A stretch of DNA of 27,599 nt from Escherichia coli. Its GTDB lineage: Bacteria > Pseudomonadota > Gammaproteobacteria > Enterobacterales > Enterobacteriaceae. The position numbers and the translations under genes were made by a program. Shown one piece after another: positions 8,683 through 17,658 of the stretch. The notes beneath the pieces were generated by a model. That model was not told the DNA's origin. It made no database searches and saw nothing but the letters and a program-made list of their open reading frames with translations. The DNA lies in NCBI RefSeq assembly GCF_003334405.1, contig NZ_QOWM01000029.1, one strand, 5' to 3'. Positions within the stretch are counted from its first letter, which is position 1. Every line of letters begins with the position of its first letter.

Positions 8683-9075
8683 GTGGACGATGAACGGAAA
8701 AGGAAAAAATTCACACTTTATCTGCATCCGGAAAAAGCTGCAGACTTTCAAACTTTGGAAGCGATAGAGTCCGTTCCGCGTTCTGAGCGTGGTGAGCTGT
8801 TCCGGAATGCATTTATTTCTGGAATGGCGTTACACCAACTTGATCCTCGCCTGCCTGTATTGCTGACTGCCATTTTGAGCGAGGAGTTTTCAGCAGATCA
8901 GGTTGTAACCTTACTCAGTCAGACGACAGGATGGAAGCCTTCTCAGGCCGATATCAGAGCTGTGTTGACTGAACTCGGTGCTTTGCAATCTGCTGAAAAA
9001 ATGCCTCCTTCTGCTACTGATTCGGTGCAGGAGGCAATGAATGATGTGCGCCTTAAAATGCAAAAATTATTCTGA
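8683..9075 (+). CDS. parR: ParR (StbB) centromere-binding adaptor
   Basis: Small ORF directly downstream of parM. Probable GTG start at 8683 preceded by GAGGAG and overlapping the parM stop; product begins (M)DDERKRKKFTLYLHPEKA. Confidence 0.7.
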   Translation: MDDERKRKKFTLYLHPEKAADFQTLEAIESVPRSERGELFRNAFISGMALHQLDPRLPVLLTAILSEEFSADQVVTLLSQTTGWKPSQADIRAVLTELGALQSAEKMPPSATDSVQEAMNDVRLKMQKLF

Positions 9076-10202: not shown

Positions 10203-10862
10203 TTGAAGGGGCGGATGTCGGTGATGGCCAGCCCCAACGGTAACCTGGATGAAGTGCATGAAGGTCTGCTGCTGCAGGCGGTCAGGGCCTCCTGGCTGGC
10301 TAAAAAGAACAGGGCGCGCATCGATGATGTGGTGGATTTCCTGAAAAACGCCCGTGATAACGACCAGTATGTCGAGTCACCGACCATCCGCAGCCGTCTG
10401 GATGAAATGATTGTCCTGCTGGATCAATATACCGCCGGCGGCACTTACGGCCGGTATTTTAACTCTGATGAGCCGTCCCTGCGGGATGATGCGAAAATGG
10501 TGGTGCTGGAGCTGGGCGGACTGGAAGACCGTCCGTCACTGCTGGTTGCGGTGATGTTCAGCCTCATTATTTACATCGAGAACAGGATGTACCGCACGCC
10601 GCGTAACCTCAAAAAACTGAACGTCATTGATGAGGGATGGCGTCTGCTGGACTTCAAAAATCACAAGGTCGGTGAGTTTATTGAGAAAGGTTACCGTACC
10701 GCCCGCCGTCATACCGGTGCCTATATCACCATCACACAGAACATCGTCGACTTTGACTCTGACAAGGCCTCCAGTGCTGCCCGCGCGGCATGGGGTAACT
10801 CCTCCTACAAAATTATCCTCAAACAGAGTGCGAAGGAGTTCGCGAAATACAACCAGCTGTAA
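10203..10862 (+). pseudogene. traC: Conjugative transfer ATPase TraC (VirB4 family) internal/C-terminal fragment
   Basis: Translation contains KLNVIDEGWRLLDF and flanking sequence resembling the VirB4/TraC ATPase region. Bounded by stops, with no N-terminal domains and no continuation. Confidence 0.5.
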
Positions 10863-11100
10863 CGGCGCAGAGTCACAGCCTGACCCTGCGGGATGCGCAG
10901 GGTGAAACGCAGGTGGTGCGTATTTCTTCTCTGGACAGCAGCTGGTTGCTGTTCCGGCCGGAGAAAATGCCGGTGGCAGACGGCGAGCGTCTGAGGGTGA
11001 CAGGGAAAATTCCCGGACTCCGCGTCTCCGGCGGTGACCGCCTGCAGGTGACATCCGTCAGTGAAGATGCGATGACGGTTGTTGTGCCGGGACGTGCTGA
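10863..11100 (+). pseudogene. traI: Relaxase/helicase TraI internal fragment (plus orientation)
   Basis: Plus-strand translation HSLTLRDAQGETQVVRISSLDSSWLLFRPEKMPVADGERLRVTGKIPGLRVSGGDRLQVTSVSEDAMTVVVPGRAE matches an internal F-type TraI segment, then loses similarity. Confidence 0.6.
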
Positions 11101-12128
11101 ATCCGGACACCATCCTGCATATTATCAGCCAGCAAGCTTTCTCCGTTACGGCTGCCCTGCAGGGCCACGAACTGCGCATCCCCGCTGCCCTTCACCCGTC
11201 CTTCACCACTGAATCCCCGCAGCCCGTTTCCGTCATCCGTGGTCAGTGGGTTCAGCCAGATACCGGCGGACTTGCCGTTACGGTCAAACGCCGGCAGTGC
11301 CACATACGGCTGCGGATATTTACGTCCCGGTGCAATAAACCGTGCCGGGCTGTCTCCCCCGGCCAGCCCTGCCTGACGGAGAACGGCACGGCCGGCCGCC
11401 ACGTCCCGCAGTTCCCGTGCCGTACTGAACAGCCGCTCTGCATTCATGACCTCCCGGTCAGCTTTTGGCTCCAGCACATCGTGGGCAGTCCCTTTCTGTA
11501 CGGCATTGTTAATGGCATCCGTCCAGCCCTGACGGTTATCGGTGTACACCTGCACATGCTGCTTCATACGCGACAGGGCCACGTAGGCTGACTCAAAGCC
11601 GGCCATCAGTTTCCGGTTACCTTCCGTGCCTTCAAGCGCAATGGCAAAGGTTTCACTTGCCCCCTGCGCACCGTGAGCGGTGATGGCATAGGCCAGGTCA
11701 ATATGTTGCTCTGCCTGCTCCTGGCCGGGGCGAATCTCCCGGGTCTGCTGTCCGTCCGACAGCGTGACACTGTCACCGGAAACTGCTGTCACCGTCCAGA
11801 CGCTGTTGGCAACATAACCGCGCTCCCGGTCACTCTTCGTGAAGCGCATCCGGTCACCGGTCCCCACCCTGATGGTGTCCGGGGTGTACAGTGTGACACC
11901 TTCAGCCACCGCCTCCCGGGGAGAAATCAGCCGCGTGTTACCTTCCGCATCCTGCAGGGTTATCAGCCCGTCATCCTTACTGATACCGGCAATCCGATGA
12001 TACACATTATCCACCAGGACAAGTGCGTCCCGATGTGTCTCCCAGGTGGAGAGACGACGCAGCTCCCCGTCACGTATATTCGCTGTGTTCAGGACAGGCA
12101 CCATGACCTGCTCTTTCCCCAGCTCTCG
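11100..12128 (-). pseudogene. traI: Relaxase/helicase TraI C-terminal-region fragment (inverted relative to the other traI piece and to finO)
   Basis: 357-aa minus-strand ORF ([29 protein letters not shown]…GSRNGESLLADNMQDGVRI) matches the F TraI C-terminal region and then diverges into non-homologous sequence before the stop. Confidence 0.8.
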
Positions 12129-12341
12129 CATAAAAAACTGCGCAGGGCGCTGAAGGCCATCACCCGTTCAGAAAGCTATCTGTGTGCCATGAAAGCCGGT
12201 GCCTGCCGGTATGACACGGAAGGGTATGTGACGGAGCATATTTCTCAGGAGGAGGAAGCGTATGCGGCAGAGCGTCTGGATAAAATCCGCCGCCAGAACC
12301 GGATAAAGGCAGAACTTCAGGCCGTGCTTGATGAGAAATAA
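12120..12341 (+). pseudogene. finO: finO 3' fragment (fertility inhibition RNA chaperone, C-terminal ~70 codons)
   Basis: Plus-strand translation [72 protein letters not shown] matches the FinO C-terminus. Upstream sequence in the same frame is the antisense of the traI fragment, so the 5' two-thirds of finO is missing. Confidence 0.8.
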
Positions 12342-12471: not shown

Positions 12472-12612
12472 ATGAATGGATTCAGAAACAGTTCACGGAA
12501 CGCTCAGGTCTGGCGCTGGCAGCGTGCCGGAAGCCGGGCCGTTATTCTGGAGGTCAGTGGACGCACGAAAAAAGCAGCCTTCATTACTCCAGGGATTCAG
12601 AAGGCTGAATAA
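12472..12612 (+). CDS. Small hypothetical protein (46 aa)
   Basis: ATG at 12472 preceded by a G-rich Shine-Dalgarno (AAAGGGGGG); product MNGFRNSSRNAQVWRWQRAGSRAVILEVSGRTKKAAFITPGIQKAE. Below the ORF-track size cut-off and with no recognised homology, so tentative. Confidence 0.25.
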   Translation: MNGFRNSSRNAQVWRWQRAGSRAVILEVSGRTKKAAFITPGIQKAE

Positions 12613-12811
12613 TGCATGAGATTTTCTTTTTTTAATATCCGGTCGGGCAGTATAACCGGACAGTTCTGAGTAGCACAGGTTTTTTTTTCGTGTTAAGTCG
12701 TGATTTTATATTTTGCGATTAATTTCACAAAATAAGGTGTTATTCATTGTGTGCTGCAATGTTCAGGATGCCTGAAATACAGGAGCCATTTTATCTGATA
12801 TGGAGAATAAC

Positions 12812-13566: not shown

Positions 13567-14157
13567 ATGAAGCTGATTATTTTTATTCTTATTGTTCTGA
13601 TTATTGCAGCGTTACTTATCCGGATTATCCTCAGAAGTGTAAATCAGCATTCTCCTTTGCTGATGCAATTGCATGCGGCAGGTATACGGACCGGTGATGC
13701 AGAGCGAATACTGTCCAGCGGTGAATACTGGCAACGTCAGAAGACGCTGCTGACAGAAAGGGAGGTCAGTTTTATGAAAGGACTGTTCAGAATTGTGGAT
13801 ATGAAGCGGTGGTATCTGTGTCCGCAGGTACGGGTCGCGGATATCGTCCAGCTGAACGGGAATATCCGGCCACGATCACGCCAGTGGTGGCAGTTATTCA
13901 GGATGGTGTCTCAGTGGCATGTTGATGTGGTTATCGTTGAGCGGCGTTCGTTCAGTATTGTTGCAGCAGTAGAGCTGGATGATGCCAGCCATTTACGACC
14001 GGAACGCAGACGCCGGGATATTCTTCTGGAAGAGGTTCTGAGGCAGGCTGGTATTCCGTTGCTCAGAAGCCACGATGCCAGAAAACTGCTGCAGATGACC
14101 GGAGAATGGCTGAATACAACAGGGGCTGATCAGCAGTCACCGGAACATCGTAGCTGA
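13567..14157 (+). CDS. Membrane-anchored DUF2726-like protein
   Basis: 196-aa protein with a strongly hydrophobic N-terminal segment (MKLIIFILIVLIIAALLIRIIL) and a C-terminal region (WYLCPQVRVADIV…ELDDASH…RRRRDILLEEVLRQAGIPLLR) resembling the DUF2726 family as I recall it. Confidence 0.55.
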   Translation: MKLIIFILIVLIIAALLIRIILRSVNQHSPLLMQLHAAGIRTGDAERILSSGEYWQRQKTLLTEREVSFMKGLFRIVDMKRWYLCPQVRVADIVQLNGNIRPRSRQWWQLFRMVSQWHVDVVIVERRSFSIVAAVELDDASHLRPERRRRDILLEEVLRQAGIPLLRSHDARKLLQMTGEWLNTTGADQQSPEHRS

Positions 14158-14396
14158 CGCCTTCGCGTTGCTCAGTTGTCCAACCCCGGAAACGGGAAAA
14201 AGCAAGTTTTCCCCGCTCCCGGCGTTTCTATAACTGAAAACCATACTATTTCACAGTTTAAATCACATTAAACGACAGTAATCCCCGTTGATTTGTGCGC
14301 CAACACAGATCTTCGTCACAATTCTCAAGTCGCTGATTTCAAAAAACTGTAGTATCCTCTGCGAAACGATCCCTGTTTGAGTATTGAGGAGGCGAG

Positions 14397-14657
14397 ATGT
14401 CGCAGACAGAAAATGCAGTGACTTCCTCATTGAGTCAAAAGCGGTTTGTGCGCAGAGGTAAGCCTATGACTGACTCTGAGAAACAAATGGCCGCTGTTGC
14501 AAGAAAACGTCTTACACACAAAGAGATAAAAGTTTTTGTCAAAAATCCTCTGAAAGATCTCATGGTTGAGTACTGCGAGAGAGAGGGGATAACACAGGCT
14601 CAGTTCGTTGAGAAAATCATCAAAGATGAACTGCAGAGACTGGATATACTAAAGTAA
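14397..14657 (+). CDS. repA2: RepA2 / CopB transcriptional repressor of repA (RepFIIA replicon)
   Basis: 86-aa product [86 protein letters not shown] is near-identical to R100/R1 CopB as recalled. Confidence 0.9.
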
Positions 14658-14769
14658 AGACTTTACTTTGTGGCGTAGCATGCTAGATTACTGATCGTTT
14701 AAGGAATTTTATGGCTGGCCACGCCATAAGGTGGCAGGGAACTGGTTCTGATGTGGATTTACAGGAGCC

Positions 14770-14866
14770 AGAAAAGTGAAAACCCCGATAATCTTCTTTA
14801 ACTTTGGCGAGTGAGAAAGATTATCGGGGCTAACAAGAAACTGCATAGAAGCTGTTGCTCTATGCG
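14770..14866 (-). ncRNA. copA: CopA antisense RNA (copy-number control), complementary to the repA leader (CopT)
   Basis: Two stem-loops in the repA leader: a 14-bp stem CCCCGATAATCTTC…GAAGATTATCGGGG (14783-14829) followed on the minus strand by a U-run, and a second stem GCATAGA…CTCTATGC (about 14843-14866). Position between repA2 and repA1 matches IncFII CopA. Confidence 0.55.
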
Positions 14867-14880
14867 GGGAGTATAGTTAT

Positions 14881-14955
14881 ATGCCCGGAAAAGTTCAAGA
14901 CTTCTTTCTGTGCTCACTCCTTCTGTGCAACATAAGTGCAGGATGGTGTGACTGA
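14881..14955 (+). CDS. tap: repA leader peptide Tap (RepA6), translationally coupled to repA1
   Basis: 24-codon [27 protein letters not shown] whose TGA stop (14953-14955) overlaps the repA1 GTG start region. Confidence 0.55.
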
Positions 14956-15805
14956 TCTTCAACAAACGTATTACCGCCAGGTAAAGAACCCGAATCCGGT
15001 GTTCACTCCCCGTGAAGGTGCCGGAACGCTGAAGTTCTGCGAAAAACTGATGGAAAAGGCGGTGGGCTTCACCTCCCGTTTTGATTTCGCCATTCATGTG
15101 GCGCATGCCCGTTCCCGTGGTCTGCGTCGGCGCATGCCACCGGTGCTGCGTCGACGGGCTATTGATGCGCTGCTGCAGGGGCTGTGTTTCCACTATGACC
15201 CGCTGGCCAACCGCGTCCAGTGTTCCATCACCACACTGGCCATTGAGTGCGGACTGGCGACAGAGTCTGGTGCAGGAAAACTCTCCATCACCCGTGCCAC
15301 CCGGGCCCTGACGTTCCTGTCAGAGCTGGGACTGATTACCTACCAGACGGAATATGACCCGCTTATCGGGTGCTACATTCCGACCGACATCACGTTCACA
15401 CCGGCTCTGTTTGCTGCCCTTGATGTGTCTGAGGATGCAGTGGCAGCTGCGCGCCGCAGTCGTGTTGAATGGGAAAACAAACAGCGCAAAAAGCAGGGGC
15501 TGGATACCCTGGGTATGGATGAGCTGATAGCGAAAGCCTGGCGTTTTGTGCGTGAGCGTTTCCGCAGTTACCAGACAGAGCTTAAGTCCCGTGGAATAAA
15601 ACGTGCCCGTGCGCGTCGTGATGCGAACAGGGAACGTCAGGATATCGTCACCCTGGTGAAACGGCAGCTGACGCGCGAAATCGCGGAAGGGCGCTTCACT
15701 GCCAGTCGTGAGGCGGTAAAACGTGAAGTGGAGCGTCGTGTGAAAGAGCGCATGATTCTGTCACGTAACCGTAATTACAGCCGGCTGGCCACAGCTTCCC
15801 ACTGA
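14948..15805 (+). CDS. repA1: RepA1 replication initiator (IncFII / RepFIIA)
   Basis: Product (GTG start) [65 protein letters not shown]… matches R100/R1 RepA1 nearly residue for residue as recalled; 285 aa. Confidence 0.9.
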
Positions 15806-15949
15806 AAGTGACCTCCTCTGAATAATCCGGCCCGCGCCGGAGGCTTCCGCACGTCTGAAGCCCGACAGTGCACAAAAAAACAGCACCACATACAAAAAAC
15901 AATCTCATCATCCAGCTTCTGGTGCATCCGGCCCCCCTGTTTTTGATAC

Positions 15950-16150
15950 AAAACACGCCTCACAGACGGGTAATTTTGCTTATCCACATTTAACTGCAAG
16001 GGACTTCTCCACAAGGTTACAGTCGTTCATGTCATAAAGCGCCAGCCGTCAGCCTTACAGGGTGCAATGTATCTTTTAAACACCTGTTTATATCTCCTTT
16101 AAACTACCTAATTACATTCATTTAAAAAGAAAACCTATTCACTGCCTGTC
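15950..16150 (+). promoter_or_regulatory. oriR: RepFIIA origin region (oriR) with DnaA box
   Basis: Consensus DnaA box TTATCCACA at 15980-15988, about 175 bp downstream of the repA1 stop, followed by AT-rich sequence, as in R1/R100 oriR. Downstream GC-rich hairpin cluster (16320-16650) resembles the single-strand initiation region. Confidence 0.5.
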
Positions 16151-16905
16151 CTGTGGACAGACAGATATGCACCTCCCACCGCAAGCGGCGGGCCCCGACC
16201 GGAGCTAATTTAGTTACAACATTCAAACATAAACCCCGGAAAAACCCCGGTTCCGCGCAGAACTGAAACCACAAAGCCCCTCCCTCATAACTGAAAAGCG
16301 AGGCCGCCCCGCCCAAAGGGCGGGAACAACATCGCTTTTAATTATGAATGTTGTAACTAAGCAACATCATCGCTGTCAGTCCTCTGGCGGGAAGTTCTCA
16401 GTACACGCTCGTAAGCGGCCCTAACGGCCCGCTAACGCGGAGATACGCCCCGACTTCGGGTAAACCCTTGTCGGGACCACTCCGACCGCGCACAGAAGCG
16501 CTATCATGGCTGAAAGCGGGTATAGCTTAGCAGGGCGGGGATGGGATAGGTGAAATCTATCAATCAGTACCGGCTTACGCCGGGCTTCGGCGGTTTTACT
16601 CCGGTATCATATGCAACAACGGAGTGCCGCCTTACATGCCGCTAACGCGGCATCAAAAACCCTTTCTTCCCCAGTGATCTCTGTACTCAATGTGTATTTT
16701 CATTTATTGATGAAATTTGATATTTACGCAATTTTCCCGTTCTAGTGTATTTTATTCTTTCGGAGGCTATAATATGTTTAATGTGATTACTCACCCGCCG
16801 CACTGGATGAGCTGCTGGAATTACCAGACAATCTGCTTCGTGAAAACGATGAAGCATGGCTACATCAGTATCATGCCTAAACCGAATGTGGGTAATGACT
16901 CCAAC

Positions 16906-17409
16906 TTATTGATAGTGTTTTATGTTCAGATAATGCCCGATGACTTTGTTATGCAGCTCCACCGATTTTGAGAACGACAGCGACTTCCGTCCCAGCCGTG
17001 CCAGGTGCTGCCTCAGATTCAGGTTATGCCGCTCAATTCGCTGCGTATATCGCTTGCTGATTACGTGCAGCTTTCCCTTCAGGCGGGATTCATACAGCGG
17101 CCAGCCATCCGTCATCCATATCACCACGTCAAAGGGTGACAGCAGGCTCATAAGACGCCCCAGCGTCGCCATAGTGCGTTCACCGAATACGTGCGCAACA
17201 ACCGTCTTCCGGAGACTGTCATACGCGTAAAACAGCCAGCGCTGGCGCGATTTAGCCCCGACATAGCCCCACTGTTCGTCCATTTCCGCGCAGACGATGA
17301 CGTCACTGCCCGGCTGTATGCGCGAGGTTACCGACTGCGGCCTGAGTTTTTTAAGTGACGTAAAATCGTGTTGAGGCCAACGCCCATAATGCGGGCAGTT
17401 GCCCGGCAT
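16906..17409 (-). CDS. insB: IS1 transposase InsB (C-terminal part of the InsAB' frameshift fusion)
   Basis: 167-aa ORF with the IS1 InsB sequence (…[72 protein letters not shown]). Confidence 0.9.
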
Positions 17410-17603
17410 CCAACGCCATTCATGGCCATATCAATGATTTTCTGGTGCGTACCGGGTTGAGAAGCGGTGTAAGTGAACTGCAGTTGCCATGTTTTACGGC
17501 AGTGAGAGCAGAGATAGCGCTGATGTCCGGCGGTGCTTTTGCCGTTACGCACCACCCCGTCAGTAGCTGAACAGGAGGGACAGCTGATAGAAACAGAAGC
17601 CAC
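17328..17603 (-). CDS. insA: IS1 InsA (transposition inhibitor / N-terminal part of InsAB')
   Basis: 91-aa product [43 protein letters not shown]… matches IS1 InsA as recalled. Confidence 0.9.
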
Positions 17604-17658
17604 TGGAGCACCTCAAAAACACCATCATACACTAAATCAGTAAGTTGGCAGCATCACC

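Follow-up and report, generated by a model that had tools for sequence, protein, structure and literature searches.

Positions 14220-16653 of the window, the whole 27,599-nucleotide stretch of Escherichia coli DNA that was analysed, very probably constitute an IncFII-family basic replicon that is intact and works as in plasmid R1. The order of the parts, their spacing and the 8-nt overlap of tap and repA are the same as in annotated R1 and R100. All three proteins of the replicon (CopB, Tap and RepA) scored above the NCBIfam curated cut-offs in profile searches. When the 72,556 plasmids of PLSDB were searched, more than 5000 matched the replicon at 90-99% identity, the best of them at 98.5% over 2 kb. 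The parts reported to be required for the maintenance of pEC958 are copA, repA6/tap, repA1, repA4 and ori (PMC4398462).

An initial annotation had described a complete RepFIIA control circuit at 14397-16150. Each of the RepFIIA-type elements that it named lies at or near the place it had assigned to them. The range itself does hold these parts, but the replicon is larger, since the homology to R1 and R100 runs from about 14160-14220 (the copB promoter region) through 16653 (the repA4 region). The annotation was right to regard the circuit as known biology: it is a control circuit of the R1/R100 type (IncFII family) with all known parts intact, and it implies no new biology. For every part, the sequence, structure, order and family membership were read from the window, as listed here with the basis of each assignment.

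14220-14396, plus strand: region upstream of copB, with the putative constitutive promoter and ribosome-binding site of copB (identity to R1)
14397-14657, plus strand: copB (repA2), 86 aa, R1 type, predicted transcriptional repressor of the repA promoter (ORF, NCBIfam PRK13702)
14651-14689, plus strand: predicted CopB operator and PrepA (palindrome search, sequence reading, identity to R1)
14774-14863, minus strand: copA, antisense RNA of about 90 nt that forms stem-loops I and II and is complementary to CopT, the plus strand in the leader of the repA mRNA (Rfam, folding)
14870-14898, minus strand: PcopA, with -35 TTGAAC, a 17-nt spacer and -10 TATACT (sigma-70 promoter scan)
14881-14955, plus strand: tap, leader peptide of 24 aa (ORF, TIGR03475)
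14913-14951, plus strand: hairpin predicted to sequester the repA Shine-Dalgarno sequence (AGGA, 14940-14943) and GTG start (RNA prediction, R1 model)
14948-15805, plus strand: repA (repA1), initiator with a GTG start, 285 aa (TIGR03474, PRK13750, R1/R100 homology)
15806-15979, plus strand: CIS, the spacer between repA and oriR (identity to R1/R100)
15980-16167, plus strand: oriR, boundaries approximate, with the DnaA box, a presumed RepA-binding stretch and three AT-rich 9-mers (motif search, alignment)
16168-16653, plus strand: repA4 region downstream of ori, ORF not intact (identity to R1/R100)

The R1 basic replicon (copB-copA-tap-repA-CIS-oriR; NZ_KY749247, 1-2500) is one of the closest known systems. 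The region before copB (14220-14396) matches both R1 and R100 at 176 of 177 nt and is invariant in the R1/R100 alignment. Because no consensus promoter in this region reached the scan threshold, the copB promoter function is assigned from its identity to R1. CopB, which the initial annotation had placed in the circuit, scored 138.8 bits with PRK13702 (cut-off, 87), and its gene equals R1 copB at 261 of 261 nt. In contrast, R100 carries repA2 (CopB) of another type, in which only the first 35 nt or so align and the local alignment spans just 13% of the gene. At the end of copB, a perfect 9-bp palindrome (AAAGTAAAG-a-CTTTACTTT, 14651-14669) overlaps the -35-like hexamer of PrepA (TTTACT, 14662-14667), which is followed by a 16-nt spacer and the -10-like hexamer TAGATT (14684-14689). 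The two hexamers match the consensus at 8 of 12 positions, under the scan threshold, and the whole operator/PrepA sequence is the same as that of R1 in the alignment. PcopB and PrepA, neither of which was recovered by the consensus promoter scan of 14160-16700, are assigned solely by R1 identity. Their assignment as operator and promoter follows established knowledge of R1 (Riise and Molin 1986 and Light et al. 1985, both cited in PMC4344636). With a CopB repressor gene upstream and an operator at the repA promoter, binding of CopB is predicted.

The CopA stem-loops of the initial annotation were recovered by family search and folding. Rfam RF00042 matched the minus strand over its full length (14863..14774; model positions 1-92 of 92) with 89.9 bits (E=7.8e-16; gathering score, 60 bits), between copB and tap and opposite the repA leader. 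The RNA folds into two stem-loops with a minimum free energy of -30.6 kcal/mol (z=-5.8), and none of 200 shuffled sequences folded as well. The 14-bp CopA/CopT stem that had been reported needs correction: the perfect inverted repeat is 13 nt long (14783-14795 and 14817-14829), and in the RNA fold one A-U and two G-U pairs lengthen the stem to 16 pairs. The consensus structure is kept across 10 alleles, in which the loop CGCCAA is invariant and the upper stem is variable. PcopA is the only sigma-70 match in 14160-16700 and its start was placed at about 14863. The promoter lies 7 nt upstream of the CopA 5' end given by Rfam, in a region that is invariant across R1, R100 and F.

Tap scored 64.9 bits with TIGR03475 (cut-off, 35), and the tap Shine-Dalgarno sequence (GGAG, 14868-14871) lies 5 nt downstream of the CopT end. 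Three of its 24 residues differ from R1/R100 Tap in the alignment (R16C, I17N and V18I). Tap WP_001375168.1 is carried by pExPEC XM and p3_COL60J, relatives that share an identical 260-bp copA-tap segment with the window. The overlap of tap and repA1 had been described as one of stop codon with start codon. The reading frames do overlap, by 8 nt as in R1 (annotated as tap 664..738 and repA 731..1588) and in R100, whose layout is the same as in the window, but the stop and start codons are separate, with 2 nt between the repA GTG (14948-14950) and the TGA that ends tap (14953-14955; GTGACTGA). The hairpin that would sequester the repA start is also predicted in R1, with differences limited to the loop and one change of G-C to G-U. 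The Tap ORF ends just inside repA, and translational coupling of the two genes is predicted.

The start of repA was chosen by homology to annotated R1/R100 repA; the open frame itself begins with a GTG at 14936. RepA scored 585.7 bits with the incFII_RepA equivalog TIGR03474 (cut-off, 446.9; residues 9-283 of 285) and 620.4 bits with PRK13750 (cut-off, 478). The gene is 98.3% identical to R1 repA at the nucleotide level, with 279 of 285 residues shared, 6 different and no frameshift, and 95.1% identical to that of R100, although its 3' end resembles R100 at several sites where R1 differs. The alignment to R1/R100 that the initial annotation had suggested as a check thus found no substantial divergence of repA, and the CopA hairpins, whose absence would likewise have spoken against the circuit, are present.

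Downstream of repA, the CIS is closer to R100 (96.0%) than to R1 (88.0%) and would function as described for R1. oriR is 95-96% identical to R1 (96%), R100 and other FII plasmids. The expected DnaA box was located at 15980-15988 (TTATCCACA) as the only copy in the window. As a motif it is weak alone, since its chance expectation is 0.27 and 23 of 100 shuffled sequences have at least one copy; it is, however, invariant and homologous in position to the oriR box of R1/R100. Three TCNTTTAAA 9-mers (16072-16080, 16095-16103 and 16118-16126), spaced at 23 bp, are aligned with those in R1/R100 oriR. The repA4 region is about 91% identical to R1/R100. Its 129-aa RepA4 frame, intact in R1, R100 and p3_COL60J, is interrupted in the window by stops and frameshifts, and it is also broken in pExPEC XM and p1RM8082.

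The R1-type control mechanism has been summarised (PMC4344636), and by analogy with R1 and R100 the parts would act as follows. RepA would be the rate-limiting initiator, acting on oriR about 175 bp downstream, where the DnaA box and the three AT-rich 9-mers lie, and its synthesis would be throttled at two levels, by CopA and by CopB. The unstable antisense CopA, made from the strong PcopA, would block the translation of tap by pairing with CopT, which lies in the repA leader immediately before the tap ribosome-binding site. Since the repA Shine-Dalgarno sequence and GTG would be held in a hairpin through which the tap frame passes, ending 2 nt past the GTG, repA would be translated only when tap is. 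CopB would repress the internal PrepA via the 9-bp palindromic operator overlapping its -35, so that the copB promoter would normally be the sole source of repA transcripts. From the intact parts, autonomous low-copy replication can reasonably be expected, and we infer replication, copy number and incompatibility in the same way.

The replicon is a mosaic when its identity to other plasmids is followed along its length, and its 5' type is already present in E. coli plasmids. Positions 14220-15675, which cover the control module and repA up to 85% of its length, are 99.8% identical (3 differences) to the type found in the ExPEC XM plasmid (pExPEC XM; NZ_CP025329) and p3_COL60J (NZ_CP092246). 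These plasmids diverge from the window from 15676 onward, where 3-18 differences per 100 bp were counted against the pExPEC XM type, and the breakpoint was placed at about 15676. In this 5' type, an R1-type copB is joined to a CopA allele that differs from those of R1/R100 and F RepFIC. This allele is already known: at least 24 PLSDB records, pExPEC XM and p3_COL60J among them, match the 260-bp FII typing segment (14691-14950) at 100% identity, and they come from E. coli, E. albertii, E. fergusonii and Salmonella. The segment was delimited by primer sequences that are reportedly those of Villa et al. 2010. For the FII allele number, no accession-to-allele table was found in the supplements of PMC12090814, and papers that cite same-allele plasmids by accession gave none that was usable.

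The copA gene is the incompatibility and specificity determinant, and its sequence decides how far the label RepFIIA applies. The label is apt for the architecture, which is of the R1/R100 type, but not in the sense of identity to R1/R100. R1 and R100 CopA are identical to each other over 91 nt, and the CopA of the window has just 70 of 92 aligned positions (76%) in common with this shared sequence. It is unlikely that the window holds a strict RepFIIA replicon with the CopA specificity and incompatibility group of R1/R100, although copB and repA are at or near identity with R1 and the architecture is shared. The loop CGCCAA and the lower 13-bp stem are the same as in R1/R100 CopA, so that the first kissing contact could still form and there could be some cross-reaction with R1/R100 CopA. 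However, the upper stem of stem-loop II carries 5 changes and an indel, 7 of the 14 spacer positions are changed, and stem-loop I is replaced throughout. Furthermore, the CopA of F RepFIC is nearer to that of R1 (90% identity), yet this replicon is typed separately as FIC (PMC12090814), and 3 mismatches in the copA specificity loop were enough to abolish displacement between FII-family plasmids in the case of pEK499 (PMC6961859). Because of the differences in the upper stem, spacer and stem-loop I, CopA-mediated incompatibility with R1/R100 is expected to be weak or none, whereas full incompatibility is expected with plasmids of the same copA allele. Typing the replicon as R1/R100 RepFIIA would be inappropriate. 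Its copA allele is distinct, which matters for predictions of incompatibility, for pMLST/FAB typing and for plasmid-curing designs based on copA.

The origin-proximal part of the mosaic is a variant. No PLSDB plasmid matched 15676-16653 (the repA 3' end, CIS, oriR and repA4 region) at more than 96.7%; this half of the replicon lacks a close relative in PLSDB, a hint that the host lineage is under-sampled. Relative to a panel of 13 plasmids, the repA4 region has about 21 private substitutions and repA has 1, and the oriR substitutions at 16012, 16022 and 16108 are missing from the panel. A 32-mer spanning 16012 and 16022 gave no exact match in a genome collection of 100,044 species; therefore, the source genome or a close relative is not a species representative in that collection. 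A separate search with 16168-16653 gave plasmids of E. marmotae (94.9%) and E. albertii (93.0%) as the best relatives; in the rest of the replicon, no close similarity links the E. marmotae plasmid to the window. Given these relatives, decay was set aside as an explanation of the private substitutions in 16168-16653, for which divergence of the lineage, or recombination, is no less likely. The broken repA4 and the private substitutions in repA4 and oriR may reduce origin or priming function. We give little credence to a further reading, in which 15676-16653 would be a variant origin, co-evolved with the RepA C-terminus in a poorly sampled lineage of Escherichia, and may have altered DnaA or priming needs or host range. 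The variant features noted in this stretch are RepA P285H, the three private oriR substitutions, a near-consensus DnaA-box-like TTCTCCACA and the decayed repA4. The DnaA-box-like sequence (16005-16013), 25 bp after the real box, was discounted because its relaxed consensus occurs in the window at about chance frequency.

The same excess of private substitutions from 15676 bears on whether the replicon is active at all. Like the disrupted F RepFIC, it might be vestigial and carried passively by a plasmid that replicates from an origin outside the 27.6-kb window. Many IncF plasmids are multi-replicon (PMC12090814), and the backbone around the replicon shows decay, with fragments of TraC and TraI, an incomplete FinO, and IS1, IS256 and IS110. 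This reading is nevertheless very improbable, as copB, copA, tap and repA are full-length and pass the equivalog cut-offs, RepA has so few substitutions relative to R1, and the DnaA box, 9-mers, PcopA, operator and Shine-Dalgarno hairpin are intact. The broken repA4 ORF could be taken as a sign of inactivity, but other natural plasmids share this defect. The larger ORFs scanned in the window included no second rep gene.

F RepFIC (NC_002483, 3.3-3.95 kb) is a member of the same family whose copB-copA-tap layout and CopA loop hexamer agree with those of the window, and MOB-suite lists IncFIC for several plasmids with the same or a related allele, such as pExPEC XM and the E. marmotae plasmid. 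A RepFIC replicon of the P307/F type instead of FII can be given almost no weight, because alignment to the F RepFIC control region showed 70% CopA identity with different upper stems and stem-loop I, and a copB of another type, with just 18% of the gene alignable. The MOB-suite labels are not reliable here, as even R1 and R100 receive the label IncFIA. F repA is also truncated by a transposon, whereas repA in the window is intact.

The comparison with R100/NR1 RepFIIA (NC_002134, 88.0-90.6 kb) likewise gave the same architecture as that of the window. Beyond the replicon, R1 carries pemI/pemK (kis-kid) downstream, whereas the window has a RelE/ParE gene stub and IS1 in their place. The window comes from an IncF plasmid whose FII-family replicon presumably works, and this frames any claims about the cargo nearby. 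The neighbouring cargo in the window includes IS1-bounded asr genes and a fimbrial usher.

Direct reading of 13800-17200, with its ORFs listed, revealed on the plus strand the part order of the textbook IncFII basic replicon:

14397-14657, plus strand: copB/repA2 ORF, 86 aa; PRK13702, 138.8 bits (cut-off 87)
14863..14774, minus strand: full-length copA, antisense RNA; Rfam RF00042, 89.9 bits (gathering score 60)
14881-14955, plus strand: tap ORF, 24 aa; TIGR03475, 64.9 bits (cut-off 35)
14936-15805, plus strand: repA ORF, open from GTG 14936; 285 aa from the in-frame GTG 14948, where its homologues begin; TIGR03474 incFII_RepA, 585.7 bits (cut-off 446.9); PRK13750, 620.4 bits (cut-off 478)
15980-15988: DnaA box TTATCCACA, the single copy in the window, 175 nt past the repA stop

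All three proteins exceed curated NCBIfam cut-offs. With the Rfam threshold passed as well, the claim of the initial annotation that the copy-number control circuit is complete (CopB, CopA, tap, repA and DnaA box) was confirmed, and its view that this is known biology was borne out, the replicon being an ordinary one of the IncFII family. All replicon parts are present and intact; we infer their activities from plasmids R1 (NZ_KY749247) and R100 (NC_002134).

The CopA fold consists of stem-loop I, a long stem-loop II and a U-run (MFE -30.6 kcal/mol; z=-5.8), and equally good folding was seen in none of 200 shuffles. Stem-loop II contains a perfect inverted repeat of 13 nt (14783-14795 / 14817-14829), which lengthens to 16 pairs as RNA; the 14-bp CopA/CopT stem proposed initially was close to this but inexact. 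The sole sigma-70-like site reported by a promoter scan of 14160-16700 lies on the minus strand at 14898..14870 (-35 TTGAAC, 17 nt, -10 TATACT), and is identified as the copA promoter because transcription from it would begin where the Rfam CopA match has its 5' end. In RefSeq relatives, the 45-aa ORF at 14709-14846 (minus strand), which overlaps copA and runs antisense to the repA leader, bears the label 'hypothetical protein' (WP_001385661.1); this is most likely a spurious gene call over the CopA RNA gene. At 14651-14669, a perfect 9-bp palindrome, AAAGTAAAG-a-CTTTACTTT, shares bases with both the stop codon of copB and a -35-like TTTACT, with TAGATT 16 nt further on. The same stretch occurs unchanged in R1, and established R1 work (cited in PMC4344636) equates it with the CopB operator of the repA promoter.

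The tap stop had been described as overlapping the repA GTG. Instead, the TGA (14953-14955) lies 2 nt past the GTG (14948-14950), and the two frames share 8 nt (GTGACTGA), exactly the overlap annotated in R1 (tap 664..738, repA 731..1588) and likewise in R100. RNA folding placed the repA SD AGGA (14940-14943) and the GTG inside a hairpin that is predicted in R1 too, differing in the loop and by one G-C to G-U change. The tap SD GGAG (14868-14871) starts 5 nt beyond the end of CopT, the strand complementary to CopA in the repA mRNA leader. By analogy with the R1-type mechanism (summarized in PMC4344636), CopA-CopT pairing would block tap translation. Translation of repA would in turn need that of tap, since the repA SD and GTG are held in a hairpin that a ribosome has to open first. 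CopB would repress the repA promoter, and RepA would be rate-limiting and act at oriR.

The DnaA box alone is weak evidence for the origin (0.27 copies expected by chance; at least one copy in 23 of 100 shuffles). Its sequence is unchanged in R1 and R100, however, where it takes up the equivalent position. Beyond the box lie three TCNTTTAAA 9-mers, at 16072, 16095 and 16118, with a spacing of 23 bp; together with the box they form the layout expected of R1 oriR. At 16005-16013, the R1/R100 sequence TTCCCCATA is changed to TTCTCCACA by two substitutions, one (16008) common to an Escherichia marmotae plasmid and the other (16012) private to the window. The result, 25 bp past the real DnaA box, has one mismatch to the consensus TTWTNCACA and is not statistically notable as a DnaA-box-like site. 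The replicon, initially placed at 14397-16150, does lie there but is wider: since homology to R1/R100 runs through the repA4 region (16168-16653) as far as 16653, it extends over about 14220-16653.

More than 5000 PLSDB plasmids matched by megablast at 90-99% identity, the top match being 98.5% over 2 kb. None was identical, and neither was any of 5,426 complete E. coli genomes. The upstream region (14220-14396) is 99.4% identical to R1 and to R100; copB is 100% identical to that of R1, while R100 copB is of a different type. For repA, identity is 98.3% to R1 (6 aa differences) and 95.1% to R100; for CIS, the segment between repA and oriR (15806-15979), 96.0% to R100 and 88.0% to R1. Identity is 95-96% to all compared in oriR and about 91% in the repA4 region.

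Among these otherwise highly similar elements, copA is the exception. A single CopA sequence is common to R1 and R100, and the window's CopA agrees with it at only 70 of 92 aligned positions (76%); its identity to F RepFIC is 70%, against 90% between F and R1. Hence the initial RepFIIA reading was right as to family but imprecise, and "RepFIIA" here should be read as a family label only. Ten distinct CopA alleles all keep the two-hairpin consensus structure and an unchanged CGCCAA loop. They vary mainly in the upper stem beside that loop, where a G-C/C-G closing pair covaries, in the spacer and in stem-loop I, which is of two sequence types, both with an AUAG/CUAU stem base. At least 24 PLSDB plasmids, from E. 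coli, E. albertii, E. fergusonii and Salmonella, carry the FII typing segment (14691-14950, 260 bp) with 100% identity; it is a minority allele, matched at 99% or more by 45 of the 5000 best records. An anti-F curing cassette did not displace pEK499, whose copA specificity loop has 3 mismatches, until the pEK499 copAB region was added (PMC6961859). The window differs from R1/R100 copA at more positions than these 3, although the loop hexamer is conserved; we therefore expect, from sequence comparison, that CopA-mediated incompatibility with R1/R100 would be weak or absent.

Differences tallied per 100-bp bin against 13 plasmids revealed a mosaic. The segment 14220-15675 is 99.8% identical (3 differences) to the type of pExPEC XM (NZ_CP025329) and p3_COL60J (NZ_CP092246); from 15676 onward the window departs from all 13. 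Separate searches gave best identities of 96.7% for both 15560-16200 and 15806-16200, and of 94.9%, to the E. marmotae plasmid, for 16168-16900. About 21 window-private substitutions fall in the repA4 region, with 3 in oriR (16012, 16022, 16108) and 1 in repA (P285H). A RepA4 frame of 129 aa, intact in R1, R100 and p3_COL60J, is disrupted in the window. Since pExPEC XM and p1RM8082 also have a disrupted frame, RepA4 is probably not essential as a protein; in pEC958, the repA4 DNA region scored as required (PMC4398462).

The replicon's neighbourhood contains the following:

2928-3989, plus strand: IS110-family (RNA-guided) transposase; NF033542, 347.6 bits
5685-6428: tyrosine recombinase
6834-7478, minus strand: ParA-family ATPase
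7707-8678: 323-aa ORF, no match in the NCBIfam search
10203-10862, plus strand: TraC internal fragment
11058-12131, strand opposite to TraC: TraI fragment
within ORF 11673-12341: FinO, C-terminal part only
12506-12646, minus strand: Rfam AS-pc02 (RF02876, antisense to pHK01_099), 78.1 bits (gathering score 40), model partly missing
16774-16836: RelE/ParE-family toxin gene reduced to its first ~63 nt
16891-17658: complete 768-bp IS1, exact terminal repeat 17636-17658, insA/insB ORFs on the minus strand
17677-19934: anaerobic sulfite reductase genes asrA (C-terminal half only, TIGR02910 positions 182-333), asrB (full length, TIGR02911, 443.5 bits) and asrC (partial, TIGR02912 positions 141-314)
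20749-21576: IS256-family transposase
25697-27544, minus strand: PefC/AfrB-family fimbrial outer-membrane usher; NF011760, 902.5 bits (cut-off 752)

A scan of the window's larger ORFs turned up no second replication initiator. The maintenance genes seen, at 5685-9075, are the tyrosine recombinase, the ParA-family ATPase and the 323-aa ORF; matching plasmids annotate a parM gene somewhere in this part of the backbone. The transfer region (10203-12341) is decayed, and the plasmid is probably not self-transmissible. The AS-pc02 match falls within the IncF backbone, between finO and the nuclease. Past the repA4 region, the RelE/ParE stub marks the end of the match to the E. marmotae plasmid (pRHBSTW-00777_2) and occupies the position at which R1/R100 carry pemI/pemK, which the window lacks. 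The IS1, 238 bp beyond the end of replicon homology, marks the boundary between backbone and cargo and adjoins the asr genes, an unusual IncF plasmid cargo that appears to be partly truncated. The usher ORF covers profile positions 193-796, its N-terminus being absent or its start mis-called, and suggests a virulence-type plasmid.
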